Position numbers and translations under genes: made by a program. Below are positions 509 through 26,725 of a stretch of 64,000 nucleotides of DNA, piece by piece (the stretch's first letter is position 1; every line of letters begins with the position of its first letter). This stretch comes from an uncultured Methanoregulaceae archaeon (GTDB lineage Archaea; Halobacteriota; Methanomicrobia; Methanomicrobiales; Methanospirillaceae). The stretch lies in the NCBI GenBank assembly GCA_963737635.1, contig CAVTTL010000001.1, positions 800,001 to 864,000 on the forward strand. The letters run 5' to 3'. The notes below the pieces were generated by a model. The model was not told the DNA's origin. It saw only the letters and a list, made by a program, of their open reading frames with translations, and searched no databases.

Positions 509-1411
509 ATGGCTGCGGAAACGGAGAGTTTTGATAAGTTTTTTGAGATGTACAAGCGTTTCTGCTATATTTTCGGACGTTCTTTCGATCGTAACCCGAG
601 CCGGGATATCATCAAACTCATCTACCAGGCTGACCTCGAAATGACGCCGGGCATGTTCACGTCCCTGTGGATCGTGACCACCATTCTCGTCGGATTTCTT
701 ATGATTGTCGTGGCCTCGGTCATCTTCCTGCTTCCCCAAAGCCCGTTTTCCGTACCGGATCCCGCACCCTTTATCCTGCTGTTCGCTTTGATCGGGGCCG
801 CTGCAATCGCTATCGGCTTTCCTTTTTACCTGCAAAACCAGATCGAGAATAAGAAACGGGATATCGATACCCAGATTCCCTATGCCCTTGCCTTCATGTC
901 TATCCTTGCCAGTTCCGGCGCAACGCCGCTTGATATTATCAGGAGAATTGCGCGGGAAGAGTACGGGCAGATCTCCAACGAATTCCGCAAAGTGCTTTTC
1001 CGCGTGGATGTGCTGGGGGAGGACGTGGTCACCGCGATGAACGGGTTGGTACAGAATACGCCGTCGGATCTGTTCCGGGATATCTGTATCGATATAACCA
1101 ATATCATCTACGGCGGGGGAGGGCTCAAGACCTACCTTGAGACAAAATCAAAAGAACTCATGGCAATCCGGCGCCAGACTTACAAGGAGTTTGTGGAATC
1201 GCTTGCTGTATTCGGGGAAGGATATCTTGGGGGCGTAGTGATGACGATCACCCTTGCCGTGCTTGGTGTCGTGATCTCCGGTGCATTAGGTATCCAGCTG
1301 GGACCGTTTTCTGCGCATGATTTGTTCAACTATCTGATCTACCTGCTGATCCCGCTCATCAACATTGTCTTCCTGCAGATGCTGGCAGTGAAATATTCGA
1401 CAAATCCCTGA
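509..1411 (+). CDS. type IV pilus/T2SS F-domain platform membrane protein (TadC/PilC/ArlJ-like)
   Basis: Two TM helices, then the T2SSF-like segment 'IDTQIPYALAFMSILASSGATPLDII...YGQISNEFRKV...G.DVVTAM...TPS', then two more TM helices. Confidence 0.88.
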   Translation: MAAETESFDKFFEMYKRFCYIFGRSFDRNPSRDIIKLIYQADLEMTPGMFTSLWIVTTILVGFLMIVVASVIFLLPQSPFSVPDPAPFILLFALIGAAAIAIGFPFYLQNQIENKKRDIDTQIPYALAFMSILASSGATPLDIIRRIAREEYGQISNEFRKVLFRVDVLGEDVVTAMNGLVQNTPSDLFRDICIDITNIIYGGGGLKTYLETKSKELMAIRRQTYKEFVESLAVFGEGYLGGVVMTITLAVLGVVISGALGIQLGPFSAHDLFNYLIYLLIPLINIVFLQMLAVKYSTNP

Positions 1412-1417
1412 TCTGCC

Positions 1418-2785
1418 ATGCCACCACCTGCCAAGGACACCCCGGTTCACAAAAAGCTCGATGACCTCAACGAGGTTATCGAGCGGATCAAGATCAAGTA
1501 CAACCCGCCACGGGAACTTTTCACCATCGCCATACCAGTGGCGATCGCATTGCTTGTCGTATTGACCGCATTCCTGATGGGCTACACTCTTCATACGACA
1601 GAAAAGCAGCAGGCTGTTACTACAAGTGACAAGGACAAAGCGCTTCAGGCATACCTTGCCCAGATGAATGCCGGAAACGGCAATGCAACCGGGAATGCGA
1701 CTGCCGCGACGCCATCCGCACCTGCGGCACCCACTATGGGGCTCGATGAAGTGATGGTCTTTGCCCTGATAATCGCCATCCTCCCGTACTCTATTGACAT
1801 AACGCTCCAGAAAAGGGCGACCCGCAAAAAAGAAGAGCTCTATACCGAGTTCCTCTTCAAGCTCTCGGAACTCATGAGGGGCGGGCTCGATCCGATAAAG
1901 GCGGTAAAGGAGCTCTCCAAGACAGATCTCGGCGTTCTGACCCCGCATATCCGCATCGCGTCGACGTCGATGACGTTTGGCAAGTCCTTTGAAGAATCGA
2001 TGAAGGCGATGGCCCAATCGCTCCATTCTAACCTGATCACCCGGTATACCCAGCTCGTTGTCCAGGCCTCGTACTCCGGGGGATCGGTGGCCGATCTGAT
2101 CCTCAAGGCATCCGAAGACATGAGGAGCATCATCTCCATTGAACGGGAAAAAGAGGGAAACCTGCACCAGTACGTGATGATCTTCTACTTTGCGCAGGCA
2201 ATTATCGTATTCATCGTTTATATCCTGACCACAAGTCTGCTCCCGTTTGTTACGCAGTCTGGTGCTACCCAGATGTTTGGTAAGTCGGATATCGGGGATA
2301 TCGATTTTGCCCGGGGATTCTTCCACATGATCATCCTCAACTCCATATTCGGAGGACTTATTATCGGAAAGATCAGCGAAGGGGAGGCACGATATGGTCT
2401 CAAGCATGTGGTGGTACTCGTTGCCGTAGGGTACATCGCATCCGCTCTCTTCATTCTGCCTCCACCGGTAGCACAAGCGGGACCAAAAGTCAATATTACG
2501 GTGGTATCAGGAGATCAGCAGGACGGAGTTATATCGCTGCCGCTTCCTAATCCAATCGTCTTCCAACTCACAGATACAACCGGTAATCCAGTGAATAGTA
2601 CGTCTGTTACATTCAGCATAGTGCCAAGTGGTTCGGTGAATCCGGCATCGGACACTTCGGATAAGAACGGACAGGTAGAAACGAAGGTCGTCCTCGGGAC
2701 CGATCCAGGAACGTACTTTGTGACTGCAACAGCAAATGGGGTTTCTGCAAAGGCAACAGTTATCGCAAAATCAGGAGGAGGTTAA
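1418..2785 (+). CDS. second T2SS F-domain platform protein with C-terminal Ig-like (Big_1-like) extracellular domain
   Basis: T2SSF-like 'EFLFKLSELMRGGLDPIKAVKELSKTDLGVLTPHI...GKSFEESM' and 'GGLIIGKISEG.ARYGLKH'; C-terminal beta-rich 'VVSGDQQDG...FQLTDTTGNPV...VTFS...SDKNGQV...PGTYFVTATANG'. Confidence 0.85.
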   Translation: MPPPAKDTPVHKKLDDLNEVIERIKIKYNPPRELFTIAIPVAIALLVVLTAFLMGYTLHTTEKQQAVTTSDKDKALQAYLAQMNAGNGNATGNATAATPSAPAAPTMGLDEVMVFALIIAILPYSIDITLQKRATRKKEELYTEFLFKLSELMRGGLDPIKAVKELSKTDLGVLTPHIRIASTSMTFGKSFEESMKAMAQSLHSNLITRYTQLVVQASYSGGSVADLILKASEDMRSIISIEREKEGNLHQYVMIFYFAQAIIVFIVYILTTSLLPFVTQSGATQMFGKSDIGDIDFARGFFHMIILNSIFGGLIIGKISEGEARYGLKHVVVLVAVGYIASALFILPPPVAQAGPKVNITVVSGDQQDGVISLPLPNPIVFQLTDTTGNPVNSTSVTFSIVPSGSVNPASDTSDKNGQVETKVVLGTDPGTYFVTATANGVSAKATVIAKSGGG

Positions 2786-2788
2786 TGC

Positions 2789-3260
2789 ATGCTGAAAAAT
2801 GCCGTTTGTATTACATTCTTGTCCATGTGTATTCTCGCACTCGTAAGTATTTCTGGCTGCACTACATCTATGCACTCCCAGTCTGAATTCATCGGTGGAA
2901 AACGCTACGGTTGCGTTACCTGATCCTGAAACAGGTCTCCAGATGTGGATAGATGCTATCAATGCCAAAGATATTAATCGTCTATATACTCTTTCGCCCA
3001 ATCAGATCCGAGAACAGGTAACTTTGGAACAATTCACGAAGGATAATTCTGACAATTATCTCCTCAAACCGGGATATATTTTTACCAAATATATAATAAT
3101 TAACGAAACAGTCAATCAAACCACGGCAATCATCGTTGCTGATTTACCGTTACAGGTGCCATCTCAGAATTCCACTCAATTGAAGGTCATTCCTATCAAC
3201 TACAAGTTTTTCCTGATCTTTGAAGATGGGGAATGGAAAATTTGGAATGTTCCTTTTTAA
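2789..3260 (+). CDS. putative lipoprotein (apparent frameshift near 2870)
   Basis: ATG 2789 gives MLKNAVCITFLSMCILALVSISGC (lipobox) and then stops; another frame continues as ORF 2895..3260 ending 'FEDGEWKIW', reminiscent of NTF2-like small secreted proteins. Confidence 0.55.
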
Positions 3261-3317: not shown

Positions 3318-3869
3318 TCATGCACTCTGTACGAAATGATGGCAGGTCGGGCAGACCCAACCAACCGGTATCATCTCCCCGTTTTTTGTCGTAGAAAATG
3401 TCTGGATCATCGGAGTATTGCACGAACAGATCGGCCTGTTTGCTGCTGCCTGTCGCTCCATAAACTGGGCGATCCTGCGCTTCTTGTATAGTGCACTTTC
3501 AATGGCGGCAAAGAGCTCCCGGGTATTGATCGGCTTGACCAGGTACCCACTCGACTCAGTCAGGACAACACGACGGATGGTTTCGTCATCGCTGTACGCA
3601 GTGAGGAAAATAATCGGCGTCCCGTACAGTCCTTTAATTTTATGGGCAGCTTCTATCCCGTCCATATCTCCCTGAAGATGGATGTCCATAAGGATCACGT
3701 CCGGGTGCCGTTCTCCGGTAAGGGAAAGCGCTTCCTCGCCGCTCATGGCAATCCCGACTGCTGAGTACCCGATCCGTTTGAGGGTCTCCTCAAGGGTCAT
3801 GGCAACAAGCCCCTCATCTTCCACGATCAGGATTCTTTTTTCCTCAGGGTTTGCAGGACTTTTCATCAT
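3318..3869 (-). CDS. response regulator receiver protein with C-terminal CxC...CxxC putative zinc ribbon
   Basis: 'ILIVEDE', 'PDVILMDIHL.GDMDG', 'IIFLTAY', 'YLVKP' receiver motifs; tail 'CSC...CPTC'. Confidence 0.9.
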   Translation of the reverse strand: MMKSPANPEEKRILIVEDEGLVAMTLEETLKRIGYSAVGIAMSGEEALSLTGERHPDVILMDIHLQGDMDGIEAAHKIKGLYGTPIIFLTAYSDDETIRRVVLTESSGYLVKPINTRELFAAIESALYKKRRIAQFMERQAAANRPICSCNTPMIQTFSTTKNGEMIPVGWVCPTCHHFVQSA

Positions 3870-3965
3870 GATTTCGCTGATATTGTTGGGTTAGTGACCT
3901 ATATTTTAGTTGCCTTTAATAGAGAGAAAGTTTAAAATATAGTTTATCAGAGAGGCAGCCAGTCG

Positions 3966-5378
3966 ATGAGTGATCAGACCCCTCGGTACTCCTTAATAGT
4001 GGGTGCGGGCAATCCATTTGCGCAGATCCCGGAGGACCCTGGGATCATGCGTTTACTGATCGTCATCATTGCTACCGCTACTATTGGCATAGCCGTTTTC
4101 AGCCTGGTACATGGGATAGCAGATCTTTACCAGTACCTCTTTCTTCTGCCGATAGTCATGACGGCCTATTTCTTTCCCCGGTACGGAATTGCCACATCCG
4201 TGATCATGGGACTCTCCCTGGTTTTACTCAACATTTTGTTTGTGGGTGAAAATCTGCCCGCACTCACGCTTGCGTGCTTCACGTTCGCTGTCTTTTTGGG
4301 GATAGGCGGAATCGTCACAATACTATCAGAGAGTATATCCGGATTAAAAGAACGATACCAGGATATATTTGCCATGTCCGGGGCGGGCATGGTCATCTTT
4401 AATCGGGATACCGGCCGGATTTCTGAAGCCAATCCCAGTTTTCTGGCTCCTTTGGGCTATATGTCAATCGGTTTACCTGCCTTACGCGATCTTTTCGAAT
4501 ACCCGGAACAGTACCGTGATCTGGTTGATGAAATTATTGCAGGCGGAAGAATTACCGATCAGAAATGCATGTTAGTTACCTCCGCGGGAGCGTTGCGCCA
4601 GTTCCAGATTTCAGCACGTTCGTTCTTCGGCCCCTTCATCCTGTGTACGTTCATGGATGTCACCGAACGTAAACAGTATGAGGATACTCTGCGCCAGTCT
4701 CTGACAGAAAAAGAGATCCTGATTAAAGAAGTGCATCACCGGGTAAAGAACAATATGCAGATAATTATGAGCCTTCTTGAGCTCAATGCACTCAAGGCCG
4801 AAAACGAACGTGAACGATCCCAGTATGCAGAAATGCAAGGGAGAGTAATGACAATGGCGCTTATCCATGAAAAGCTCTATCAGTCCCCGGTCGCTGGTTC
4901 CATCAATGCGGAAGAATATTTCTCGGATCTCCTCAAAAATATTGTTTCTGCTTCCGCATCGCCCGGCATACGATGTGTTGTACAGGCACCGGGAATTTTC
5001 CTCGATATAGATAAGGCCATTCCCTGCGGTCTCATTATCAACGAGCTTGCCACAAATTCACTGAAATACGCATTTCGTGAAACGGCCGGATCAGAGATTC
5101 ATCTGACCCTGACTGCCGGCAGCGACGGTCTATGCACCCTAGAATTTTTTGACAACGGAAGGGGTCTTCCTCAGTCGTATGATTTTGCTGCGTCGGAAAC
5201 TCTAGGGATCAGGTTGATCCATATGCTTGTACGACAACTTAAAGGCGCTATCACTATAACAAACTATGATGGCACGCATTTCTGCATACAGTTTCCCCTG
5301 AATCTTCGTGAACAGGAACCGAAAACCTCTGTCGCGACCCGGATCCCGGAACAGACTACCATTTCCCGGTGGGCATAA
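3966..5378 (+). CDS. membrane sensor histidine kinase (PAS + HisKA_2-type + HATPase)
   Basis: About 4 N-terminal TMs, PAS-like segment, H-box 'KEVHHRVKNNMQII', 'LIINELATNSLKYAF', 'DNGRG', 'TLGIRLI'. Confidence 0.92.
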   Translation: MSDQTPRYSLIVGAGNPFAQIPEDPGIMRLLIVIIATATIGIAVFSLVHGIADLYQYLFLLPIVMTAYFFPRYGIATSVIMGLSLVLLNILFVGENLPALTLACFTFAVFLGIGGIVTILSESISGLKERYQDIFAMSGAGMVIFNRDTGRISEANPSFLAPLGYMSIGLPALRDLFEYPEQYRDLVDEIIAGGRITDQKCMLVTSAGALRQFQISARSFFGPFILCTFMDVTERKQYEDTLRQSLTEKEILIKEVHHRVKNNMQIIMSLLELNALKAENERERSQYAEMQGRVMTMALIHEKLYQSPVAGSINAEEYFSDLLKNIVSASASPGIRCVVQAPGIFLDIDKAIPCGLIINELATNSLKYAFRETAGSEIHLTLTAGSDGLCTLEFFDNGRGLPQSYDFAASETLGIRLIHMLVRQLKGAITITNYDGTHFCIQFPLNLREQEPKTSVATRIPEQTTISRWA

Positions 5379-5487
5379 CCATAATTTTTCTTCCCCGGGA
5401 TATGTAAATCCCAATATGACTATAGAGACTAAAGAAGAAATTATGATATGATCTCAAAAAAGAGTGTATAAACTCTAGGTTTGAGCG

Positions 5488-7269
5488 ATGAAAGTCCGCA
5501 CGCGTACCCGGTTAATTCTTGCTGCCTTGGCTTTTATTTTTTTGATTGTTCTTAGTTTCATCACCCAGTTTATAATCCTCGATTCATTTCGTACGATAGA
5601 AAAACAGCAGATGACGGCAAACGTCCAACGGGTTGTTGCAAATCTCAACGATCAGGAGAACACGGTAGCAGCCAGCTGCAAGGATTGGGCAGACCGCGAC
5701 GACACCTATAATTTTGCAGAAAGAGCCAATTCACCGGGGAATACCGGCACATTCAACCAGCCGCTCCTGCTCGGGACGCTTGATGTCGACTATCTTCTCA
5801 TATACAATACTTCGGGAGATCTGATATTTTCCGAAGGGGCCATAACAGACAACGGGACGTCGGAAGTCGTTCCCGCCCAACTTGAGAATATCATCAGCGA
5901 CAGTATTATTCCACCGGGTGTACCTGGCGGGGTATCGGGACGACACGGGGTCTCGTTCCTCAATGGCGAACCGGTTATTCTTGCCGGTTGTGCCATCCGG
6001 GGGAGTCAGACGGAGCCTTCAGAGGGCACACTGGTCATGGTGCGGGTTCTTAACAGCCAGAGAATGGCAGACATGGAAAGTGTTCTCCAGATTCCGGACT
6101 TTACCTTTGGACCCTCTTCCACGGGTTCCGGTGTCGGCGTATTCAGCACCACAGACATACAAAAAATGAAGAAAGGCGAAATTATCAGCCAGCCAGTCAA
6201 CGACAGCCAGATGGGAGGAACGGCAATGATCACGGGCATCGAGGATAAGCCAACCTTCCTGATGCTGCAGGTGTTCACGGATCGTACAGTCTATGGCGAA
6301 GTACAGTCATCGATCCTGATAGTTGCGGCTTCGATCATCATCCTGAGCGCCTTTTTTATCTTGGCGATCCAATTTTTACTACAACGGTTTGTCCTGGGGC
6401 CGCTCAGCTCCCTTGACAATGATATAAAAATCATCGGTGAATCCGGCGATCTTTCCCGTCGTATCCCGGCCAAAGGGGACGAGGAGATTGTATCTGTTTC
6501 CCAAGCCCTGAACCAGATGCTTTCCGATCTTGAAGAAAAAAGGGCTGAACTTTCCGCTGCCCGCAGTGAAGTTGCCCAGCGTAACCGTGAACTCGAGGAA
6601 CTTAACCGGAAGGCGAACCTGTACCTCGATATTTACCTCGATGTAATCACGTACGAAATACTCAATGCAATCATGGGACTGCGAGGGTACGCCGATTATC
6701 TCAATGAGACTGCCCAGGAAAATGAAAAGCAGTTCCTCAAAAAGATCGTCGATCTTGCCCAGAAGAGCAACAACGTGATCCGCAATATCGAAACAATAAG
6801 CCGCATTTATAAGATGCAGCCCGGTGTCGTTCCCATCAACCTTGAAAGTATCATAAAAAAGGAAATGGATGTCCGCCAGAATATCCATATTACTCTTGAA
6901 GGATGCGACCGTATAGTATGCGCTAATGATATGCTCGGCGTCGTTTTCGATAACCTGTTCTCAAATAGTCTCAAGTTCGGCGGCCCGAAAGTGTCCATCG
7001 ATGTTTCCGCCCGGGACGCCGGCGATGGGATGCTTGAAATATCGGTTGCTGACAATGGTCCGGGAATTTCCGATGAGATAAAACCGGGGATATTTGACCG
7101 GTTCGCCAAAGATACAAAAACCCGAAGCAGTTATGGCCTCGGGCTCCATATCGTCAAGATGCTGGTGGAAGGATATGGCGGCCGGGTATGGGCCGATGAT
7201 CGGGTCCTGAAAGATGCTTCGTCCGGTGTCACGATACGGTTTACGCTCCGCTTGGCCAAAATAACCTAA
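5488..7269 (+). CDS. CHASE4-HAMP histidine-kinase-like sensor (H-box His apparently replaced by Tyr)
   Basis: TM, CHASE4-like 'DWADRDDTYNF', TM, HAMP 'GDLSRRIP..GDEEI', HATPase 'VFDNLFSNSLKF', 'VADNGPGI', 'GLGLHIV'. Confidence 0.88.
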   Translation: MKVRTRTRLILAALAFIFLIVLSFITQFIILDSFRTIEKQQMTANVQRVVANLNDQENTVAASCKDWADRDDTYNFAERANSPGNTGTFNQPLLLGTLDVDYLLIYNTSGDLIFSEGAITDNGTSEVVPAQLENIISDSIIPPGVPGGVSGRHGVSFLNGEPVILAGCAIRGSQTEPSEGTLVMVRVLNSQRMADMESVLQIPDFTFGPSSTGSGVGVFSTTDIQKMKKGEIISQPVNDSQMGGTAMITGIEDKPTFLMLQVFTDRTVYGEVQSSILIVAASIIILSAFFILAIQFLLQRFVLGPLSSLDNDIKIIGESGDLSRRIPAKGDEEIVSVSQALNQMLSDLEEKRAELSAARSEVAQRNRELEELNRKANLYLDIYLDVITYEILNAIMGLRGYADYLNETAQENEKQFLKKIVDLAQKSNNVIRNIETISRIYKMQPGVVPINLESIIKKEMDVRQNIHITLEGCDRIVCANDMLGVVFDNLFSNSLKFGGPKVSIDVSARDAGDGMLEISVADNGPGISDEIKPGIFDRFAKDTKTRSSYGLGLHIVKMLVEGYGGRVWADDRVLKDASSGVTIRFTLRLAKIT

Positions 7270-7309: not shown

Positions 7310-7921
7310 TCATCCGTGCCGTTCACGGGTATCGATCAAGAACCCTTCATTACTGACCGTAAAGGGAAGCATCTTTTCAAGAAGCTGGGCTCCCTGCATC
7401 TTGGGTATATTGAGATAACGTTTGAGTTTGTCCCCTTCAGTAACGGTGGTGATCTGGATGACTCCGTCGACCATCGCCCGGAGAAGAGCTTCGTGCCGTT
7501 CAGGAAGGACGCCACGATCCATAAGCAGCAGAAAAACCCGGCCGGTTTTTGCCGCGGCAATGATACGGGAGATCCCGTCGCGGAGTTCCAAAAGAGATGA
7601 ATCGAGGAAGTAAAAGGAAAACTGATCCACAATCACCAGGTCACAGGTACTTTTGAGCGCGAGCAGGTCAAGAAGCGCCCCCGGGGAAGCCCCAGGCATC
7701 TCCTCAATATGAAATCCTTTCGCTGGTAAAATGTTCAGGCGTTTCATATCTCCCCGGACATCGTCTGGAGATCGAGACGTGATATAACACACATTCTTTC
7801 CGGCAGCTGCAGTCTCAGAGCCAATATACTGGGCATAGGAGGATTTGGTGATACCCGTGTCTTCTTCTAGCAGGATTACACTCTTTTCCGGAAAATCATC
7901 TATACCTTGGACGGGTGCCAT
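7310..7921 (-). CDS. RecA/KaiC-superfamily (RAD55/ArlH-like) single-domain ATPase with degenerate Walker A
   Basis: 'VILLEEDTGITKSS' (degenerate P-loop), 'LVIVDQFS' Walker B, 'VDGVI', 'RYLNIPKMQG', 'FTVSNEGF' typical of the KaiC-like C-terminus. Confidence 0.78.
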   Translation of the reverse strand: MAPVQGIDDFPEKSVILLEEDTGITKSSYAQYIGSETAAAGKNVCYITSRSPDDVRGDMKRLNILPAKGFHIEEMPGASPGALLDLLALKSTCDLVIVDQFSFYFLDSSLLELRDGISRIIAAAKTGRVFLLLMDRGVLPERHEALLRAMVDGVIQITTVTEGDKLKRYLNIPKMQGAQLLEKMLPFTVSNEGFLIDTRERHG

Positions 7922-8174: not shown

Positions 8175-8618
8175 ATGCAGACCTTTCCAGCCCTCTTCAG
8201 GCGCATCTATAATACACCGGCGTGCATTGCTGTTATCCCCTCAGTGGCAGTAATTATCGATTATACCCTTACCTTTTTTCTGGCAGCGAATACCGGGATG
8301 ATCCTCCAGTGGGAAGCAAGTCCTCTCGTACGATTTGCCGTTGCACACAACATCATGGCGATCTACCTGCTGGCGATCGTTCTATTCTATTTTGGGGCCG
8401 CATATGCAATCCTCCTCATCCTTCGGCCAACATGCTATTACAAGTATAGTGTTGCCTTGGTTGTACTGCTAAGCATTACGCATGTGATGGGCGGTTTATC
8501 GTGGCAGCTTAAAAACACGTGGTATTCCGACAGCGTTATTGCCCTCTCTCTTATAACGGTAATAATTACCATCTGCTTGTTTGGTTACTCCTTCCTCCGG
8601 AAAGAGTGCTTCGCTTGA
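8175..8618 (+). CDS. small 4-TM membrane protein, DUF5658-like
   Basis: 'IIDYTLT...EASPLV' resembles the D..lT...E.NP signature; four hydrophobic segments. Confidence 0.6.
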   Translation: MQTFPALFRRIYNTPACIAVIPSVAVIIDYTLTFFLAANTGMILQWEASPLVRFAVAHNIMAIYLLAIVLFYFGAAYAILLILRPTCYYKYSVALVVLLSITHVMGGLSWQLKNTWYSDSVIALSLITVIITICLFGYSFLRKECFA

Positions 8619-9140: not shown

Positions 9141-9611
9141 TCAACCACGGGTGATGACGATCAATTTGACTGAATACATGAGCCAGAAGAGATTGACCGT
9201 AAAAGCAAGCATATAGGGAACGCAGGCGACCTGGATGATCCGCAATCCCAATCCCTTGTAATTGCGTTCCATAATATTAGCGACAATGATAGTAAAAAGA
9301 GCAAACATCAGTTTGATCCCAAGATGGAGAAACGGGTCCTGTACAATATATGCCATGAAGGGGTTTGCCTCGGACGCCGTTCCTGCACCTGCACCTTTCC
9401 ACAAAAGAAGAGTGGTTGAAAATACATCGAATATAACAAGAAATGTCAGGAACAGCATCCACTGGCCGTTTATTGCGATATCATCGGGGAATATCGCGTG
9501 CACTATGGACCAAAGGCGTGGGGACCGGGTCTTAAACTGTATCAATCTTGATACTCCAACAGCTACTCTTAATGTCTCTTCTAGGTCTATTAATAGATCG
9601 TTTTCCCGCAA
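9141..9611 (-). CDS. DUF5658 family membrane protein (true start probably downstream of 9611)
   Basis: 'FDVFSTTLLLWKGAG...EANPFMAYI...GIKL' matches the D..T....G..EaNP signature. Confidence 0.7.
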   Translation of the reverse strand: MRENDLLIDLEETLRVAVGVSRLIQFKTRSPRLWSIVHAIFPDDIAINGQWMLFLTFLVIFDVFSTTLLLWKGAGAGTASEANPFMAYIVQDPFLHLGIKLMFALFTIIVANIMERNYKGLGLRIIQVACVPYMLAFTVNLFWLMYSVKLIVITRG

Positions 9612-9717: not shown

Positions 9718-10401
9718 GTGAACCTGATTATCCTGAAATACGGCATCCTAATCGGGGCCCTTCTGACGACCACTGTCTTTGTCTCAGGACCCCTGAGTCA
9801 GCCTTCTGCACAGCAGGGAGTACAGAACAGCAGCGAGATCGACGCGCAGTCGATCTTTGCCTTCGGCTCGCAGGTGTTTTATAAAGAGGCGTCCCAGCCC
9901 GGAAACGAATATGTACAGAATAGCGTGCAGGGATATTCCCAGAACCTGGTCCCTACCAATGCCGAAAACCAAGCCTACAACTCGTCATGGCAGGCCGGCG
10001 TTGCGCAATTTAAGTCCGGGTACGACCGCGTTACTACTGCGCTTTTCGACCTCGCTTCCGTGCCATCAATGCAGACCAGCGAGCAGAAAATGGCGGTATG
10101 CGGAGAATTTGCGACCGGCGAGAATGAAATGACCCAGGCAAGGGATGAATTCCTTTCTGCAAAAAACAGTGCATCGCCGGCAACTGACTCAGGTTTCACC
10201 ATCGCCATGGTGCTGGAACAAGTCGATGCGATCATCCAGAGTTCGGATGATGCTGACACGGCATGCATGAAGGCGGTCGTGGCCGATCATAACCATGACC
10301 ACGCGGGATTTTCAGCAGACCTCAAGGATGCGCAGAGTGCAGTACAGGATATGGAACACGCTTACCCCGAGCTGAAGGTGCTGAGCAGTGATTTTACCTG
10401 A
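9718..10401 (+). CDS. secreted alpha-helical hypothetical protein
   Basis: N-terminal hydrophobic signal, Ala/Gln/Asp-rich helical body; visibly similar to the C-terminal domain of 12027..13127. Confidence 0.75.
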   Translation: MNLIILKYGILIGALLTTTVFVSGPLSQPSAQQGVQNSSEIDAQSIFAFGSQVFYKEASQPGNEYVQNSVQGYSQNLVPTNAENQAYNSSWQAGVAQFKSGYDRVTTALFDLASVPSMQTSEQKMAVCGEFATGENEMTQARDEFLSAKNSASPATDSGFTIAMVLEQVDAIIQSSDDADTACMKAVVADHNHDHAGFSADLKDAQSAVQDMEHAYPELKVLSSDFT

Positions 10402-10479
10402 ATTATTGAAACCAAAGGAGATGCTATCGATGAGAAAGAAGGAAAATCGAGACAAAATCAACCAGACCCGGAAAAACAG

Positions 10480-14672: not shown

Positions 14673-14688
14673 AGTATACAACTTCTAA

Positions 14689-14703: not shown

Positions 14704-14706
14704 ACA

Positions 14707-18347: not shown

Positions 18348-18564
18348 CTGAAAGAGGCGAAGAACGGGAGCGGTCACATAGAACTCTATATTCTCAATTC
18401 AAAAAATATATTTTAACGGGCTACGTAATGATTTGGTGATTACCGGGTTTTTCAAAAGAACCTCATTATACAAACGGAGTTACCGCATGGCATACGAGGG
18501 ACGGCATAGTGCGCAGGAAACGGGTAGAGTGCCGTGTGCGACGGTCAGCTTTTGAGGATCCATC

Positions 18565-20586
18565 ATGAAAATGAGAATCCCCCGCGTCAGGAAGCAGATT
18601 CGTATCCCACTTGTCATAGGAGCGATCCTCATCCTGCTCGCACTCGGGATGTATTTTCACATTCTGCCAAGTATCGGTAGTCTGGCGCATCTTTTCGAAC
18701 CCAAAATTGCCGTAAATCCGGTCCGATCGCTGTCGGATGAAGATGCCTCACTCAGCCCAGCTCTTGCGAAACCCCTTATCGCTGACATTCTCGCCTCACC
18801 CACATACCAGTCCAATCCGCTTTCCGTACAATTCTTCGATATGAGCCAAGGCAACCCGGATACCTGGCAGTGGGATTTCGGGGATAATACAAGCTCGACC
18901 CTCCAAAACCCGGTTCATACGTACACCAGCGCCGGGATCTATAATGCCACGCTGACCATTTCCCGGGCAGATGGCGCCCAGAGGACGATAAGCGCAAACG
19001 ATGTACTGGATACCCGGCAGGGCGCCGAAATTCCCGTGCTGATCGATACCCTCCGGGACGGAATCATAAAGAAAGGTTCATTTTTATCCCTTGTATCAAC
19101 AGACAATAACTCATCTGTTACCGTGAATGGTAAACAAACTCCGCTGCCTGCAGGATCGCTTGTAAAGATCCGGGCCGACTCGGACACCACCGGGACCCTG
19201 ACCCTTCGCAACAGCAACATCCTGAGCTGCAGTCTTGCTGATGCCACGCTTTTTGTGAACGGAGCCCAGGCAGCTACTGGCAGTTTCGGGAATTGTTTCA
19301 TTCCATCAATCCAGAGTTACCATACAAACCTGAGCTTCGCAATCGAACCAACAATCGGGGAAGTCCGCCAGATCCTTGTCAACGGCAGCAAAATCCTTGC
19401 CGGGCCGGACAACTCGTACATCGTCGTCTCTGATGATTCACAAAATCCCAGAGACGACCTGACCGCTGTTGCGCTTCCCGGATATTATGAAGGAAGTGCA
19501 TCCCGGTACTCCATTTCACCTGCCTTGATTGCCGGTTTCGACGCCACAACCCCCACCGAAGGTGATGCCCCGCTTAACGTATCATTTATAGACCGCTCAG
19601 CCGGCGCTCCGGATTCATGGTCATGGGATTTCGGTGACGGAATCACTTCCCAGAAACAGAATCCTGTTCACCTCTATGGATCCCCAGGCACCTATGATGT
19701 CACCCTGACTGTGAAAACCGCGGACCAGGTTGACACGGCCACCCTCCAGGACCCGATCATCGTCACACCGCCCCGGGTCGTTGCTAACTTTTCAGCACGA
19801 CCAATCACAGGTAGAGCGCCTCTGACCGTCAGGTTTACCGATCAATCCACCGGATTCCCGACATCATGGAACTGGACCTTCCAGGAAACGTCAAACAACC
19901 AGTCCTTCATGAACAATGGCACCACCGTTTATGACACTACAACTGACCAGAATCCTCTAGAAACCTTCACTGATCCTGGCATCTATGATGTCTGGCTTAC
20001 GGTCAACAACATCTATGGCAGCAGCGATTTGATCAAGCCCGGGTACATCGTCGTCACCGAGCCTTACAACATTACCATCAACGATATTCTGATCAGGACC
20101 GGAAAACCCGGGGATCTCGAAGCGAATTCAAGCGTACAATTTATCGTCAGTAATACACCTGCAGCCATAACGATCAATGGCACGTACTATCAGCTGCCCA
20201 AAGGCGCAATCGTCCAGATCGTGGCAAACAGCGACCAGCAGGGCGACATTACTATCGACAGCAACAGGATCCTCAAATTTGATTTCCCGGATATGAATGT
20301 CTACGTGAACGGCGATCTGCTGGATACCGGCAGTATCGATAGCATCTATGTTCCCTATATGGCGCAGTTCCAGACTGGCCTTACTTATTACTTCTCGCCA
20401 AATTCCGCCCAGACATTCGAGACCATTAATGGTCAGCAGTACCTCGCTGATCTGGACAATGCCTGGATCAGGATCTACAACCTCGGCATCAACGAACAGG
20501 GCACGCTCTCCCTGATCTCGGGGGTAAACTCAACCTACCTCGAAGGAGCAGACAACCAGACGGTCCAGGACTGGATCCTCCAGTGA
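18565..20586 (+). CDS. membrane-anchored PKD-domain surface protein with two copies of an unknown beta domain
   Basis: N-terminal TM; three PKD repeats ('WQWDFGD..S..QNPVHTY', 'WSWDFGDG', 'WNWTF..QNP'). Confidence 0.88.
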   Translation: MKMRIPRVRKQIRIPLVIGAILILLALGMYFHILPSIGSLAHLFEPKIAVNPVRSLSDEDASLSPALAKPLIADILASPTYQSNPLSVQFFDMSQGNPDTWQWDFGDNTSSTLQNPVHTYTSAGIYNATLTISRADGAQRTISANDVLDTRQGAEIPVLIDTLRDGIIKKGSFLSLVSTDNNSSVTVNGKQTPLPAGSLVKIRADSDTTGTLTLRNSNILSCSLADATLFVNGAQAATGSFGNCFIPSIQSYHTNLSFAIEPTIGEVRQILVNGSKILAGPDNSYIVVSDDSQNPRDDLTAVALPGYYEGSASRYSISPALIAGFDATTPTEGDAPLNVSFIDRSAGAPDSWSWDFGDGITSQKQNPVHLYGSPGTYDVTLTVKTADQVDTATLQDPIIVTPPRVVANFSARPITGRAPLTVRFTDQSTGFPTSWNWTFQETSNNQSFMNNGTTVYDTTTDQNPLETFTDPGIYDVWLTVNNIYGSSDLIKPGYIVVTEPYNITINDILIRTGKPGDLEANSSVQFIVSNTPAAITINGTYYQLPKGAIVQIVANSDQQGDITIDSNRILKFDFPDMNVYVNGDLLDTGSIDSIYVPYMAQFQTGLTYYFSPNSAQTFETINGQQYLADLDNAWIRIYNLGINEQGTLSLISGVNSTYLEGADNQTVQDWILQ

Positions 20587-21209: not shown

Positions 21210-21845
21210 TCACTGTCGCTGTTGCAGGAGGCTCGCCGTTGCCGTGATATTGGAAAGCGCTGCATCGCCGTCATCAAGAGATGACAATGCCTGGGTCTTT
21301 GCGTCCATTGCTGCCGCACGCAGGGAGTCGTCCCGGTAATCGGGATCGGGCTCGGATAGATACTCGCTCAGATCCCGGTTATAATCCACGAAGTGCTGCT
21401 GGGCGTTCCCCATATCTATGGAATAGATTTTCATTTCCTGGGTGAGCAGGCCGATGAGCCCCGGGGTCTCCTGATCCGTCCCGAATGAAAGGGCCGAAGT
21501 ACCCGACGAAAACGAATCCGTCGCGGATCCCAGTGCCGTACCGGCGCTGCCCCACTGGCTGATGGCCTGCCCATCGGCAGCCACATCCCCCTGTAGCGTC
21601 CCGGCATCGGAAGAAGCCCCGGCGGTATCGATATTATAGGCAGAAAGGGTGTTCCCTATCTGGGTAAGTGAAGTGCGTACCTGGCTTGCATAGGTACCCT
21701 GCTGATCGGCCCATGCATTATAATCCTGAATGACGACCGTCGTATTGTGGGTATCACCCATCCGTGGGGTGGTGCAACCGGCAACAAGAAGGAAACACCC
21801 AGCCATAAAGAGGAGAATGAAAAATACCGCGGATCGTTCCATCAT
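21210..21845 (-). CDS. helical lipoprotein, hypothetical
   Basis: Lipobox 'LLVAGC'; Ala/Asp/Gln-rich helical body. Confidence 0.75.
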   Translation of the reverse strand: MMERSAVFFILLFMAGCFLLVAGCTTPRMGDTHNTTVVIQDYNAWADQQGTYASQVRTSLTQIGNTLSAYNIDTAGASSDAGTLQGDVAADGQAISQWGSAGTALGSATDSFSSGTSALSFGTDQETPGLIGLLTQEMKIYSIDMGNAQQHFVDYNRDLSEYLSEPDPDYRDDSLRAAAMDAKTQALSSLDDGDAALSNITATASLLQQRQ

Positions 21846-21984: not shown

Positions 21985-23296
21985 ATGTATAAACTGGGCG
22001 CTCTAGCATGTCTCTTCGTCGCGGTACTCGTTGGGGCATGCGGGTGCTCCGGCACAAGTCCCGGAGCAAACCAGACACCCGGATCCACCCCTACGCTCCC
22101 GGCAAACTATGTCGCCGGGGAAAGTACACCCTCTCTGTCAAGTGCTACGATAGCACCTACACCAACGCCTCCGAATGCGACAGCAAATATCTACGGGGCA
22201 CAGGTCAATACGACGCTGACGGAAGTGACGATCGCCTGCACGGGGCAATCATGTACCTATGGCATAGCTTCCAATACGACGCCAACTACCATTATGCCCC
22301 CCCTAACCGCTATTGCAGCAAATATATCCATGATATATACCAGGCAAAATCCGCTGCTGGTTGGCGTCCAGTTCACCGATAGTTCGGTAAACACCCCCCC
22401 ATACTCATGGATGTGGAGCTGGAAGCCAAGCGCGAACCTGAGTTCCGAGAGCGATCCCAGTATCGTCCTTGTGTTCAGCCAGTACGGGACATATCAGGTT
22501 ACCCGTACTGTTTCAAACACACTGGGGACTTCAAGTTCTTCAACAGATATCTCGGTCTGCCCGCTTGTAGCATCGTTTACCACGAACCAAACGAGCGGCC
22601 CAGTACCCCTCACCGTCAGGTTTGCCGATACATCGACCGATCAACCTGTCTCCTGGTCATGGAACTTTGGTGACGGGAGGTACGTCCACGCTCCAGAACC
22701 CGGTGCACACCTACACGACTTCAGGGACGTATACCGTGAGGCTGGATGCAACAAATTCCCTCGGCTCCTGCTGGAACACCACCGGGATCTCGGTCTCCTC
22801 ACTCTCTGCATCGTTTAGCGCAAACCAGACGAGCGGTTTGGCGCCCCTTGCCGTCCAGTTTACTGACTCTTCGACCGACCAGCCTACTAAGTGGTCCTGG
22901 GACTTCGGCGACGGGAGTATATCCAGTCTCCAGAACCCGGCACATACCTACACATCAGCAGGAGTGTATACGGTAAATCTTAAAGCCACCAACGGGTTTG
23001 ATGGGTGGATAAGTGCCACGCCCGATACGATCACGGCCTATTCCCTTCCCACCGTGGACTTTAAGGCAAGCCCATTAACGGGGCCGTCGGGAACATCGGT
23101 ACTCTTTAATGACCAGAGCACCGGATTTCCTGCACCCACGTCATTTTACTGGGACTTTGGAGATGGTTTCACCAGTACCTACCAGAATCCATCGCACCAG
23201 TATGCCAGTTCCGGCGCGTATACAATCAGTCATTCCGCAACAAATTCGCAAGGGACCGTGTGGTTGAACAGAACAGGGTATATCTCCATATCATGA
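21985..23296 (+). CDS. PKD-repeat lipoprotein (about 4 PKD domains), frameshift near 22675
   Basis: 'LVGACGC' lipobox, Thr/Pro linker, repeated 'W.WDFGDG..S.LQNP.HTY...G.YTV'; its TGA overlaps the ATG of the ATPase (ATGA 23293-23296). Confidence 0.85.
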
Positions 23297-25428
23297 CTTC
23301 CAGACCATTAACCGGCAGGATTTCATCTCTTTTCGGCACTAAAGAGCCTGACGGGACTGATACCGCTACAGAGCAATCTCCATTGGTCCTGACCGAAGAA
23401 GAACCCGTATCCGGGGAGTACGAGGTCAAAAAATCCGCGATATCACACTATCCTGACGGCAGGCACCGGGTTTCGCGCGTCCAGAAATTCATCCTGTACT
23501 TTATTGAGCCGGAACTGGAACCGCAAACCGGCGCCAAACCGCCAGTGCCTGCCACCGAACGTACACAGAAAACTCCTGCACCTCCGATAAAAGACCGGAT
23601 CCGGTTACAGCTGGCGTCCTTGCGATCGTCTCTCCTGAAAATAACCCTGTTTTTTGTCGAACCCGGATATGATAACGTGGAGATCCTCACGTTACCTGCG
23701 CCGCTAAAAGAGACCCTTAAAACTCACCTCCTCAAGCCGGAACCTACAGATAATACAATCCAGGCAGTAGTTGTACCGTCTGCACCCCCTTCTTTTGTGC
23801 AGAAGATCCGATCGGTGTTTGCATCACCGGAACAGAAGGATATCCAGACGCTCGATTTTGATCCCGGTGTTTTAGCTGATCCTTCCCTCGAGGGATCGCT
23901 GCGGGATGTCAATATCACGTACCAGATCGATCCTCCCTACCAGTACGTCCATATCGAGTACAGCAAAAAAGACGGGGCCCTTACCTATGAGGTGGTAGAA
24001 CCACAACTCTCCGAAGATGAGAAAATCGCTCTTGATATTATCGAGCGGGCTTTTGAGAAACTGGTGAGTACCAATCTTGAGGTTATCGAGGGAGAACGGC
24101 GGAGTGAATATCTCCGGGAACGGTTTTACTCCCTGGTCAATATATTCGGGCTCAAACTGACGGAATACCAGAAAGAGCGGATGTTTTTCACGCTCAAACG
24201 ACAGTATCTGGGGTACAGCCGGATCGATACCCTGATGAAGGACAAATATATCGAAGATATCAGCTGCAACGGATCCGACATCCTCCTGTACGTCCAGCAT
24301 CGTATCTACGGGTCGATCCGGACCAATGTGAGGTTCGGTGAAGTCGAACTCAACAACTTTGTCCTGAAACTTGCGCAGGTCGGCGGCAGGCATATCTCAC
24401 TGCTCCAGCCTATCCGCGATGTCTCGCTCCCGGACGGGAGCCGTGGAAACCTTACGCTGGGCGGCGAGGTCACCAGAAAAGGTTCGACGTTTACCATCCG
24501 TAAATTCCGAGCCAACCCAATCTCACCCATCGAGATGATGGATTACCATTCGGTCGATGCAATGGAGCTCGCGTACCTGTGGATCCTGATGGAATACAAG
24601 CGGTCAATCCTTGTCTCCGGGGGAACAGCGACCGGTAAGACTACGTTCCTCAACGTCCTCTGCAGTTTCATCCCTCCGGAGTACAAGATTGTCTCCATCG
24701 AAGACACCGCAGAACTTAACCTGATGCATCCCAACTGGATCCAGTCCATCACCCGGGCAGGATTTGGCAGCTCCAGTGGGGGAGAGAATGTATCCGGGGT
24801 GAGCGGCGTGTCCTCGAAAAGCCCGGGGGATATATCGCTCTACGATCTGCTTGTCGCAGCGCTGCGACAGCGACCTGAGTTCATCATCGTGGGTGAAGTG
24901 CGGGGCAGTGAAGCGTTTACCCTCTTCCAGGCAATTGCCGTCGGGCACGCAGCCCTTGGCACCATCCACGCCGGCTCCATGGACGAACTTCTTGCCCGTG
25001 TAGAGTCAAACCCCATGAACGTTCCCAGAAGCCTCTTTTCCAACCTCGATGTGGTACTCTTCCCTATGCATATCAAGAAAGGCGAGCGCAGCATGCGCCG
25101 GCTGGCAAATATCGTCGAAATGCTGGAGTCTGACCGGGACACGGGGGACCTTATCACCAATACCGTCTTCAAATGGGCCCCTGACATCGATGAGTTCCAG
25201 TTCCAGGGCCGCAGCTTCCTTTTTGACAAGATCCGGGACACCCACGGGGTAAATAAGGATATTCTCAACCAGGAACTCAAGGACCGGACGGCATTCCTTC
25301 TCGGCCTGCAGAGGGCAGGCGTACGGGAATACAACGCGGTGACCGAACAGATCCGGGCGTATTACCGGGACAAACCGGCGGTCATGAAGCAGATCCTTGC
25401 GGTTCAGGCAGAAGGACTAGAAGCGTAA
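23293..25428 (+). CDS. type II/IV secretion ATPase (PilB/TadA/ArlI-like) with long N-terminal extension
   Basis: 'IEDISCNG', 'STFTIRKF', Walker A 'SGGTATGKTT', 'VSIEDTAEL', 'ALRQRPEFIIVGEVRG', His box 'GHAALGTIHA'. Confidence 0.93.
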   Translation: MTSRPLTGRISSLFGTKEPDGTDTATEQSPLVLTEEEPVSGEYEVKKSAISHYPDGRHRVSRVQKFILYFIEPELEPQTGAKPPVPATERTQKTPAPPIKDRIRLQLASLRSSLLKITLFFVEPGYDNVEILTLPAPLKETLKTHLLKPEPTDNTIQAVVVPSAPPSFVQKIRSVFASPEQKDIQTLDFDPGVLADPSLEGSLRDVNITYQIDPPYQYVHIEYSKKDGALTYEVVEPQLSEDEKIALDIIERAFEKLVSTNLEVIEGERRSEYLRERFYSLVNIFGLKLTEYQKERMFFTLKRQYLGYSRIDTLMKDKYIEDISCNGSDILLYVQHRIYGSIRTNVRFGEVELNNFVLKLAQVGGRHISLLQPIRDVSLPDGSRGNLTLGGEVTRKGSTFTIRKFRANPISPIEMMDYHSVDAMELAYLWILMEYKRSILVSGGTATGKTTFLNVLCSFIPPEYKIVSIEDTAELNLMHPNWIQSITRAGFGSSSGGENVSGVSGVSSKSPGDISLYDLLVAALRQRPEFIIVGEVRGSEAFTLFQAIAVGHAALGTIHAGSMDELLARVESNPMNVPRSLFSNLDVVLFPMHIKKGERSMRRLANIVEMLESDRDTGDLITNTVFKWAPDIDEFQFQGRSFLFDKIRDTHGVNKDILNQELKDRTAFLLGLQRAGVREYNAVTEQIRAYYRDKPAVMKQILAVQAEGLEA

Positions 25429-25501
25429 CGGGAAGTTCTTTCCAATCGTCTCTGAGATCACCTGTGCCAGCTCAGTCACGATTTCGGGGCAAATCAGGAG
25501 G

Positions 25502-26725
25502 TTATCTGCAGATATTGTTTGCAAAAGACCTGCTTCTCGTGAGTTGCCCGGAACTTATGGTTGCCGTCCCGTTACCACAGATCAGATAGGTAACATTTCC
25601 AAAGGCATCCGTTTGGCCATTGGAATTTGAAGGAACCAGTGTCCATGTGAAAGGTAAGTTATCTGCGTATTGATTGATGCTATAGGATACTGGTTGATCC
25701 GTTAGGGGAGTATTGCTTATGGCAGTTATGGTCACATTTAATTGATTGCCGGTCTGGTTCCAATCCAGATTAATGGACGATGGCGGGACAAACTGTTGAT
25801 CTTTTGGGATGAGTTGATAAGGAGAGGTTGCAACCATCCCATTGCTGTCGGTTACCGTCAAGTTGGCACAGAAGGGCCCACTTATAAATGGGGAGAAATG
25901 AGCTATTTCATTGCTGAAATAGGGAGGAACACTTACCGTACTTAGATCATTGACATCCGAACAGTTCCCGATTGGATCAATCTGACCGTTTGTCATAGTG
26001 TAGGTAGCATTCATGAGTGTCCATTTCCAGCTGACAATGGTCGCATTTCCTGATGAGGACTGTGACCCGTCCAGCACTATATTATCCCGCGGAACTGAGC
26101 CAAGCGTTGTTGTTTCAGTGTTATAGACAATCACAGGGGTCGGTAATTTGTAGGTCTGCTCAAAAATGTTCGTGAGCGAAGTTAAGACCTTGATATCAAT
26201 CTGGTCGCCGGTTCCAATAGGAGGTGCCGCGGGGGTCAGATCGATCGTGATTTTTGTACTTTTCCCTGCCGGAATTGCAAATTGTGACGAATTGACATAA
26301 GAACCAAGTGATGAGGAAGAATTACACCATCCTCCAGGTGATCCCAAGGCACTGCAATTCCCTGAAGAATAGGAGCCCGATAACGAAGAAAATGAAAAAG
26401 GAAGCAGATACTGGTTATTAATGGCGATGCCTACGATATTGGTATCCTGAGTGTTGAGATTCATCAGATCGAACGAGATGGAACTCCAGTTTTGTGGCGG
26501 GACGCCTATCTGGTTCCAGTAACTTTCATTATTGGTCAGACTCACCCCGGAGATCACAATATCCTCGTCATGGACTGCCTGCATCTGTGATTGCCGGGTC
26601 ATCTCGGCTTTCTGCATCTGCGAAACCATGAGCGCAAGAGCGGCTGCGGCGGTCACAGTTATCAGGATGAGAAGAAGGGTTCCGATAATAACAGAAACAC
26701 CCTTATCGTCACGCGGCCGGGTCAT
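25502..26725 (-). CDS. large archaeal type IV pilin-like protein with PKD/Ig-like domains
   Basis: Class III signal 'RDDKG|VSVIIGTLLLILITVTAAAALALMV'; PKD-like 'IVLDGSQS...SWKW...LTVTDSNG'; Ig-like C-terminus 'TDAFGNVTY'. Confidence 0.88.
   Translation of the reverse strand: MTRPRDDKGVSVIIGTLLLILITVTAAAALALMVSQMQKAEMTRQSQMQAVHDEDIVISGVSLTNNESYWNQIGVPPQNWSSISFDLMNLNTQDTNIVGIAINNQYLLPFSFSSLSGSYSSGNCSALGSPGGWCNSSSSLGSYVNSSQFAIPAGKSTKITIDLTPAAPPIGTGDQIDIKVLTSLTNIFEQTYKLPTPVIVYNTETTTLGSVPRDNIVLDGSQSSSGNATIVSWKWTLMNATYTMTNGQIDPIGNCSDVNDLSTVSVPPYFSNEIAHFSPFISGPFCANLTVTDSNGMVATSPYQLIPKDQQFVPPSSINLDWNQTGNQLNVTITAISNTPLTDQPVSYSINQYADNLPFTWTLVPSNSNGQTDAFGNVTYLICGNGTATISSGQLTRSRSFANNICR

Follow-up and report, generated by a model that had tools for sequence, protein, structure and literature searches.

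A pilin-type phosphate-binding protein encoded with a type IV filament-like machine: a candidate phosphate bindosome of methane-cycling archaea

The closest described counterpart of the gene cluster considered here is the Bas bindosome of Sulfolobus, in which a type IV filament ATPase and a membrane platform are thought to place binding proteins in the cell envelope (PMC13705601, PMC4858521). The cluster lies between positions 509 and 26,725 of a 64,000-nucleotide stretch, referred to as the window, from an uncultured Methanoregulaceae archaeon (assembly GCA_963737635.1, contig CAVTTL010000001.1, positions 800,001 to 864,000). It combines genes of a type IV filament-like machine with genes for a phosphate-binding protein that has a pilin-type start (PstS) and for the permeases PstC and PstA. 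It may encode a dedicated machine that has the phosphate-binding protein as its cargo or subunit, in other words a phosphate "bindosome". Judged from gene content and sequence comparison, a probability of roughly 0.6 is given to this reading.

Sivabalasarma and Albers (PLoS Genet 2026; PMC13705601) proposed that bindosomes are widespread and that binding proteins with class III signals "functionalize" type IV filaments. Their screen of archaeal genomes, as reported in the main text, yielded 4397 candidate binding proteins, methanogen lineages included. According to the same text, such proteins mostly stand with ATP-binding cassette (ABC) transporters and not at filament loci, and their link to a specific locus needs validation. 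That main text uses none of the terms phosphate, PBP and KaiC; the supplement may list the PstS family. KaiC-family genes that accompany VirB11/TadC operons in Methanomicrobia were described by Makarova et al. (2016; PMC4858521). The main text of that work contains none of the terms "phosphate", "ABC" and "PstS", and its sole mention of substrate-binding proteins concerns their cleavage by the PibD peptidase, not a transporter locus. No account of pilus genes together with a pilin-type PstS in an archaeon was found in the literature searches, with the reservation that supplements may bear on priority. To our knowledge, there is no resolved structure of a Sulfolobales bindosome.

The likeness to the Bas system lies in the binding protein of an ABC importer that bears a class III signal and a hydrophobic helix, here predicted from the genes. 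The differences are several. The binding protein and the permeases share an operon with the machine, whereas in Sulfolobus the binding proteins are encoded at transporter loci (PMC13705601). The substrate family is phosphate rather than sugars, two genes encode the platform, the three small Bas pilins appear to be replaced by an ArlH-like protein and a pilin of about 400 amino acids, and the hosts are methanogens and their relatives. The ATPase is not an orthologue of BasE (NF053672), scoring 192.6 bits in the window and 187.4 bits in Methanolobus profundi against a cut-off of 1000. Because its ATPase fails the BasE model, the module is placed outside the Bas family, although it would function in the manner of a bindosome.

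Three other systems offer partial parallels. Canonical PstSCAB-PhoU importers are matched by PstC and PstA at equivalog scores and by PstS in its fold and four binding motifs. The window cluster differs from them in that neither PstB nor PhoU was found in it, in the pilin-type start that PstS has instead of a lipobox, and, in Methanoregula, in a PstA with three more membrane spans and a predicted extracellular domain. The motor core of the archaellum provides the best family matches of the ATPase (FlaI/ArlI) and of the KaiC-like protein (ArlH), and the platform is ArlJ/TadC-like. These matches nevertheless remain below the equivalog cut-offs, with 377-419 bits against 550 for FlaI/ArlI (window 377.4) and 38-52 against 215 for ArlH (window 38). 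Archaellins and ArlC-G genes were not seen in the cluster, although no search was aimed at them. Finally, Pseudomonas aeruginosa also carries a phosphate-binding protein on a surface appendage, its PstS-rich appendages being associated with phosphate limitation (PMC2242829, PMC3949141). This system is bacterial, and the excerpts of the two reports mention neither a pilin-type start nor a dedicated pilus machine.

Linkage of the pilin-type PstS to the pilus machine

In the ten related genomes examined first, pstS, pstC and pstA stood inside the same cluster without exception, two of them (G079 and G052) having compact forms. Among 228 genomes of the family, an orthologue of the window's ATPase (at least 73% identical) was present in 23 and a pilin-type PstS N-terminus in 22. 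Both were found together in 20 genomes, always on one contig and within about 12 kb, except for G109 (34 kb), and neither in 203. The three genomes with the ATPase only are one in which it lies at a contig edge (G043), one whose contig ends 1.6 kb beyond it (G044) and one that is 64% complete (G129). PstS only was found on a 6.2-kb contig (G226) and in another genome of 64% completeness (G208). The genomes of the family are related and not independent, and the counts are given without a statistic. A pilin-type PstS independent of this clade of ATPase and TadC proteins, which the initial annotation had named as a refuting case, was not found among the 228 genomes.

A scan across orders, using one genome per species and two short peptide patterns from the family alignment, yielded 54 loci, a lower bound that leans towards the conserved helix. 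The carriers include Methanoregulaceae, Methanolinea, Methanoculleus, Methanofollis, Methanocella, Methanosarcina sp. T3, Methanolobus and Methanomethylovorans. Among them are cultured strains, namely Methanolobus profundi Mob M, Methanolobus psychrotolerans YSF-03, Methanoculleus palmolei DSM 4273 and Methanosarcina sp. T3. They also include the anaerobic methanotrophic archaea (ANME) of groups ANME-1 and ANME-2, two metagenome-assembled genomes (MAGs) with names beginning in Nitrososphaer-, and one MAG labelled Deltaproteobacteria. Locus content was scored by tblastn with fixed thresholds within 10 kb. The ATPase and/or both TadC genes were found in 40 of the 54 loci, other parts of the cluster or cut pieces of it in four (L054, L055, L087, L102), and a contig end within about 3 kb in eight (L059, L072, L073, L075, L077, L081, L082, L097). 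PstC and PstA are both present in 42 of the 54. At L086 and L100, PstS is followed directly by ATPase-TadC1-TadC2, with no PstCA.

The machine genes and the pilin-type PstS are one conserved gene module, usually accompanied by PstC and PstA and never by PstB, which was not found between PstA and the pilus ATPase in any locus. The initial annotation had suggested a test of whether an extended PstA co-occurs with this set. The link between the pilin-type PstS and the ATPase/TadC clade stands (20 genomes of the family, 40 loci across orders), but the extended PstA was found in the Methanoregula lineage only. Two observations concern individual carriers. The Nitrososphaer- MAGs, related to ammonia oxidisers, are L086, which has PstS and the ATPase and lacks PstCA, and L096. 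The contig of L087, labelled Deltaproteobacteria, is probably a binning error.

Outside Methanoregula, the gene order is pstS-pstC-pstA-ATPase-tadC1-tadC2, followed by the ArlH-like gene on the other strand and then by the pilin. The opening of the ATPase frame falls between -177 and +345 bases from the end of PstA at 24 loci, and the two overlap in 15 of these. The six genes from pstS to tadC2 abut or overlap in the isolate Methanolobus profundi, so that the pilus ATPase occupies the usual place of pstB. A sensor kinase gene lies upstream of this cluster, and AbrB-PhoU regulators are encoded on both sides of it.

The ATPases of these loci also form a group of their own. Five genomes of other families contain six ATPases that are 54-67% identical to that of the window and 17 paralogues with at most 44% identity, and all six orthologues adjoin a pilin-type PstS. 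A quick maximum-likelihood tree with 40 rows unites the 19 pst-linked ATPases in one group, with a Shimodaira-Hasegawa-like approximate likelihood-ratio test (SH-aLRT) value of 99. They stand apart from 21 paralogues, including four of the window's own genome, and their branching roughly follows taxonomy. On this tree, the pst-linked ATPases are a separate clade.

PstS, PstC and PstA: constraint, fold and reading frames

PstS is composed of a class III signal, a hydrophobic helix, a linker rich in Ser, Ala and Gln, and a phosphate-binding domain. TIGR02537 identifies the N-terminus as a class III signal of the archaeal type followed by a hydrophobic helix, and this region likewise matches the beginning of an archaeal flagellin of solved structure. 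Two positions ahead of the predicted cleavage site the residue is variable, as it is in the other Pilin_N-type pilins of the genome, which share the type of cleavage site with PstS. A pilin-type start is found in 18 of 20 PstS relatives. The two relatives that have none are the window's own truncated open reading frame (ORF) and a frame-shifted fusion ORF of another assembly.

The assignment to PstS is supported by structure and by conserved residues. The model of P0004, a relative from another assembly, has a predicted local distance difference test score (pLDDT) of 79 and the two-lobed fold of periplasmic binding proteins of the PstS type. Among the Foldseek matches in the PDB listed for it, phosphate-binding proteins extend to about rank 37 and are followed by molybdate binders, with target TM-scores of up to 0.76. 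A profile of 15 PstS relatives matches 28 solved PstS chains. In the alignment of these 15 proteins, STT, GGGSG, DIG and R...SGT are invariant columns that align with the motifs of a solved phosphate receptor; we take them to be the phosphate ligands of Escherichia coli PstS. The Pfam family PBP_like_2 is matched above its own cut-off of 27 bits, with 31 bits in the window and 70.6 bits in Methanolobus profundi. The protein represents a divergent branch of the PstS family.

The helix is the most constant part of the protein. Mean identity over the 15 proteins, which were collected with a query without the N-terminal helix, is 88% for the helix (residues 13-42), 54% for the linker and 45% for the binding domain. 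Such constancy is to be expected if the helix must fit a machine or a filament, whereas a mere anchor would not be held so constant. A related observation comes from two congeners, G003 (L044) and G020 (L130/L131). Compared with the window, their TadC1, TadC2 and ATPase are 83-95% identical and the first 76 residues of PstS 80-84%, against 31-40% for the PstS binding domain, 49% for PstC and 55-56% for PstA. Within an otherwise stable machine, the pstSCA cassette was either swapped or diverged fast, with the pilin part of PstS retained.

PstC and PstA look like working permeases. Their intact orthologues in the genome G146 exceed the NCBIfam equivalog cut-offs, with 266.7 bits for PstC (cut-off 196.45) and 244.4 bits for PstA (193.45). 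The coupling loops of both proteins resemble those of canonical permeases in sequence, which implies that the cluster's PstC-PstA would still need an ABC ATPase. In the Methanoregula lineage, the permease part of PstA is followed by a linker of low complexity, three further hydrophobic spans and a domain of about 230 residues. A hydropathy scan gives 6 + 3 hydrophobic spans, and, given a start in the cytoplasm, the three crossings of the membrane would place the C-terminal domain outside the cell. The domain is encoded in the same ORF as PstA in 11 of the 13 loci that have it, and the other two are in chromosome-level assemblies that contain frame errors of the kind seen in the window. Its model (pLDDT 57) has a confident beta core, with an insertion of about 75 residues left unmodelled. 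The resulting beta-sandwich resembles YjhA, a Bacillus anthracis protein, YcdA and MPT63 at Z-scores of 9.4-10.6, just above the usual background; in Pfam, only DUF4352 was matched, at E = 0.11. Two PKD proteins and a lipoprotein-like protein are encoded between PstA and the ATPase in Methanoregula-type genomes. The extended PstA is best regarded as a feature of this lineage, not as part of the conserved core.

As deposited, the three pst genes of the window are broken. The pilin-type start and the binding-protein body of PstS lie in different frames owing to an extra letter at 13761, PstC has an in-frame stop at 15259-15261, and the tail of PstA changes frame twice. The initial annotation had named all three genes, and all three are present, though in frames that the assembly has disrupted. 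To examine these sites, positions 13400-18400 were compared with contigs of four public runs from four studies that are at least 99% alike. The runs differ in which sites they cover, and X1 is possibly the source sample and hence not independent. The contigs of X1 and X2 are without one letter at 13761 and at 14671, sites that X4 and X6 do not cover. An indel pair in PstC, in which the letter at 15256 is missing and an extra G follows 15261, is seen in all four runs. The letter at 17022 is missing in X1, X4 and X6, and those at 17515 and 17537 in all four. Once all seven changes are made, PstS, PstC and PstA are each read as one ORF, with lengths of 407, 306 and 906 amino acids. Relatives are whole as well: P0004 is an intact protein of 376 amino acids that is 99% identical to the window PstS, and the clean assembly G146 has all three pst genes intact, with a PstC of 306 amino acids and a PstA in a single ORF of 836.

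The breaks in PstS, PstC and PstA are assembly errors, since the public contigs do not have the extra letters and the relatives are whole. A decaying remnant, with pst pseudogenes and a cluster that has lost its function in the organism, is what the frameshift of PstS, the stop in PstC and the two frame changes of PstA would at face value suggest. This explanation is extremely improbable: contigs of up to four public runs are free of exactly these letters, and the edited stretch gives three whole ORFs, on which grounds the pseudogene reading was rejected. Further genes of this assembly are also split over two or three frames and likewise point to assembly errors, namely exonuclease III, the second PKD gene, an Lhr-like helicase (27830-30177) and the A24 prepilin peptidase. 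The PstC stop was also considered as a recoded codon, a candidate dropped when the contigs showed the indel pair there. The break in the second PKD gene (21985-23296) is assumed to be an error too. The assembly probably contains about one indel error per few kb, given the errors proven between 13400 and 18400, and this rate fits its completeness estimate of 90%. Part of the stretch is contained in 12 public metagenome runs from five studies, most of which are labelled soil; no RNA data set was listed among the public runs that contain it.

The window cluster and its genomic surroundings

The ORF listing and family scans recovered every part that the initial annotation had named, at or near the places it had given (Table 1).

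Table 1. Genes of the cluster in the window, with the matches on which their names are based
Feature	Position	Strand	Match or observation
TadC1, first half of the split platform (ArlJ/TadC-like)	509-1411	+	Pfam T2SSF 55.8 bits (cut-off 25.2)
TadC2, second platform protein, C-terminal immunoglobulin (Ig)-like domain	1418-2785	+	T2SSF 51.9 bits (cut-off 25.2)
Small conserved protein, no Pfam family	2895-3260	+	After TadC2 in related Methanoregulaceae loci, 31-72% identity
Response regulator	3318-3869	-	Pfam match
PAS/HisKA_2 histidine kinase	3966-5378	+	Pfam match
CHASE4-HAMP histidine kinase	5488-7269	+	Pfam match
Short KaiC/ArlH-like protein	7310-7921	-	Pfam KaiC 33.2 bits; NCBIfam ArlH 38 bits (cut-off 215)
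Hydrophobic protein of 147 amino acids, four membrane spans by reading of the sequence	8175-8618	+	Conserved with the cluster
DUF5658 multi-span membrane protein	9141-9611	-	42.8 bits
Two proteins of no named family	9718-10815	+	
Exonuclease III, frameshifted	10945-11762	+	
Membrane protein	12027-13127	+	
Pilin-type PstS	13541-14672	+	TIGR02537 21.4 bits (cut-off 20) on the N-terminal piece; PBP_like_2 31 bits on the body
PstC permease	14707-15627	+	TIGR02138 157.9 and 110.6 bits on two halves
PstA with long C-terminal extension	15624-18347	+	TIGR00974 248.4 bits (cut-off 193.45)
Membrane-anchored protein with three PKD domains	18565-20586	+	PKD_4 138 bits
Lipoprotein-like protein, lipobox start, no Pfam family	21210-21845	-	37-75% identity at the same place in relatives
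Second PKD protein, read in two frames	21985-23296	+	PKD 46.3 bits
Type IV filament assembly ATPase (FlaI/PilB-like), long N-terminal extension	23260-25428	+	T2SSE 106.5 bits (cut-off 24.9)
Pilin of 407 amino acids, class III signal, Ig/PKD-like body	25502-26725	-	TIGR02537 30.4 bits (cut-off 20)

Several of these proteins recur with the cluster elsewhere. Orthologues of TadC1, 37-95% identical, adjoin a pilin-type PstS in other genomes. Orthologues of the large pilin are found in the cluster across orders at 28-60% identity. In the window pilin, cleavage is expected after K-G, and its matches to Pilin_N (21 bits) and to a K319L-like PKD domain (25 bits) are both below the cut-offs. The first PKD protein is kept at the same place in Methanoregula-type loci with 44-77% identity. 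The membrane protein of 147 amino acids reaches 32-73% identity in loci of several orders; it matched no Pfam family even at E = 1, and in the protein Atlas it gave unnamed clusters and only a sub-threshold lead to DUF5658. In Methanosarcinales, its gene often stands directly after that of an AbrB-PhoU regulator.

The Ig-like tail of TadC2 (residues 380-448) matches Big_1 with 31.9 bits, under the cut-off of 34.9. The Methanolobus profundi orthologue (L085:15984-17381) has the same weak match, with 33.3 bits just under the Pfam cut-off. Such a domain is unusual on a platform protein of the TadC type, and its outward orientation is assumed. The KaiC/ArlH-like protein is present in the cluster across orders. 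At the place of its Walker A motif it has E-E-x-x-G-x-x-K-[ST] instead of G-x-x-G-x-G-K-[ST], a difference that most of 31 orthologues compared have retained. The protein may act as an adaptor, being a non-standard ATPase or an inactive one.

The roughly 10 kb between TadC2 and PstS hold a response regulator, two kinases, small membrane proteins and exonuclease III, and not pilus genes. The two-component genes at 3318-7269 are found at the same place in some relatives only (G158 and G146, partly G003). Judged by this distribution, these inserted genes do not belong to the core. The N-terminal, CHASE4-containing part of the kinase at 5488-7269 is matched, with 23% identity, by a histidine kinase in two genomes of another family of the order (L040 in G031, L042 in G026), where a plain-anchored PstS-like protein adjoins it. 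That protein and its kinase may be a phosphate-sensing pair.

A second, canonical phosphate system is encoded elsewhere in the window's genome, with a phoU-type regulator, pstS, pstC, pstA, pstB and phoU at G000:C1:364793-370344. The PstS of this operon begins with a lipobox, and its canonical counterparts in six relatives have either a lipobox or a plain membrane anchor. The best-scoring PstB of five other genomes is encoded away from the cluster and exceeds the curated cut-off in three. It adjoins canonical pstCA genes in four of the five; in the fifth genome, an incomplete MAG, nothing more than a piece of PstB at the edge of a contig was found. Near the cluster, either a canonical pst operon or a gene for PstB is present at L056, L068, L079, L088, L058, L060, L092, L070, L072 and L087, and genes for AbrB-PhoU regulators adjoin it in other loci.

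The genome has a single A24 prepilin peptidase (PF01478, 30 bits, cut-off 26.5), located outside the window at C1:362197 and split into two frames. It belongs to L103 (G000:C1:360697-363873) and lies about 2.4 kb upstream of the canonical pst operon. Within 18 kb (G000:C1:352049-370344), an ATPase/TadC pair (352049-354470), this peptidase (about 362200) and the canonical operon are found together. Two more pilus ATPase/TadC loci occupy G000:C1:752344-774321, 26-48 kb upstream of the window, and include five ORFs with Pilin_N-type starts, one at 762516 and four in a row at 770794-774321. The genome has at least five secretion-ATPase genes.

Proposed function, alternatives and significance

In the proposed mechanism, the single A24 prepilin peptidase would cut PstS before V-S-P-I-V. 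The ATPase and the platform would lift the conserved PstS helix out of the membrane and assemble it, together with the large pilin, as a short filament or pseudopilus. The phosphate-binding domain would then hang on its flexible Ser/Ala/Gln-rich linker, in or beyond the surface layer (S-layer), and bound phosphate would be passed to the PstC-PstA permease that the cluster itself encodes, for which the canonical operon's PstB is the most likely source of power. In Methanoregula, the beta-sandwich of PstA, the two PKD proteins and the lipoprotein may scaffold the structure. We infer that cleavage, filament assembly, passage of the S-layer, hand-over of phosphate to PstCA and induction under phosphate limitation all form part of this process.

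A bolder version of the mechanism can be envisaged, in which the filament motor and PstC-PstA form one membrane supercomplex and the ATPase stands in the pstB slot for that reason. PstS would be extended beyond the S-layer and pulled back by ATP-driven movement, phosphate being carried mechanically, and the Ig-like tail of TadC2 and the Methanoregula PstA beta-sandwich would serve as a docking collar. This elaboration is distinctly unlikely.

A number of observations weigh against the bindosome reading itself. The module is patchy, occurring in 15 of the 107 genomes of the genus, and hence accessory. At two of the 54 loci (L076 and L099), a pilin-type PstS stands without any pilus gene in the flanking sequence of about 10 kb in either direction. 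PstB is missing from the cluster, so its PstCA is assumed to need an ATPase encoded elsewhere. Nor was a small major pilin found in the cluster: a pattern scan of positions 1-30000, which could miss variants, found two class III-type starts, those of PstS and of the 407-residue pilin. The binding domain of PstS is joined to the helix by a flexible linker and is not a compact pilin head, and the helix is modelled at low confidence (pLDDT 37-58). Lastly, this PstS branch falls under the NCBIfam cut-offs of TIGR00975 (205 bits) and TIGR02136 (206.6 bits), P0004 scoring 42.6 and 30.2 bits and the Methanolobus profundi orthologue 101.3 and 57.2 bits. Since these scores are far below the cut-offs, the substrate could be a related oxyanion rather than phosphate.

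Some of these observations fit other explanations of the cluster. The pilin-like start might only tether PstS, cut or uncut, and the pilus genes might belong to an ordinary adhesion pilus that is co-regulated with phosphate uptake, for example for sticking to phosphate-bearing particles. The flexible linker is what tethered binding proteins have, the large pilin contains adhesin-like Ig/PKD-like parts, and the two loci without pilus genes retain PstCA or a truncated PstC beside the pilin-type PstS. A plain anchor, however, would have no need of 88% helix identity across orders while the binding domain drifts to 45%. The ATPase clade is moreover tied to the pilin-type PstS, the genes overlap in one operon, and PstS remains beside the machine genes at loci without PstCA (L086, L100). 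An anchor without a role in the machine is therefore considered unlikely. That no small major pilin was found, together with the presence of an ATPase, a platform and one large pilin as parts of a pseudopilus, would also suit a device like type II secretion that drives PstS, and possibly the PKD proteins as well, across the S-layer or sets them free, PstS being no lasting part of a filament. This is improbable in view of PstS itself, whose very conserved pilin-type helix is what would be expected of a subunit and not of a passenger. We know of no archaeal type II secretion by such systems.

A pilus-mounted PstS might instead report external phosphate to regulators such as AbrB-PhoU or the window kinases, without feeding a transporter. 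AbrB-PhoU genes that flank the cluster on either side at three loci of Methanolobus (L084, L085, L098), the kinases and response regulator inserted in the window cluster, the loci without PstCA, and the membrane-anchored PstS-like protein beside a related kinase in another family are all compatible with such a sensor. Yet PstC and PstA adjoin PstS in most loci, reach curated equivalog scores and keep the coupling-loop motif of working importers, which makes a purely sensory role very unlikely. The phosphate bindosome thus remains the preferred reading of the cluster.

What is new here is the recognition of the apparent pseudogenes as assembly errors, the two-way count in the family, the census of PstB, the swap or fast divergence of the cassette, and the extracellular additions of Methanoregula. 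The bindosome idea has so far rested on one system of Sulfolobales. The present cluster brings binding protein, permease and machine together in one operon, across methanogens and methane-oxidising archaea that include cultured strains, so that the link of a binding protein to a specific filament locus becomes directly testable. This link is the missing piece named in the main text of the 2026 survey (PMC13705601). The arrangement may reveal a way of scavenging phosphate in archaea that have a proteinaceous wall but lack a periplasm, which is relevant to methane production in phosphorus-poor peat and soil. Many methane-cycling archaea have this arrangement, and it probably enables them to place phosphate traps on a surface structure.

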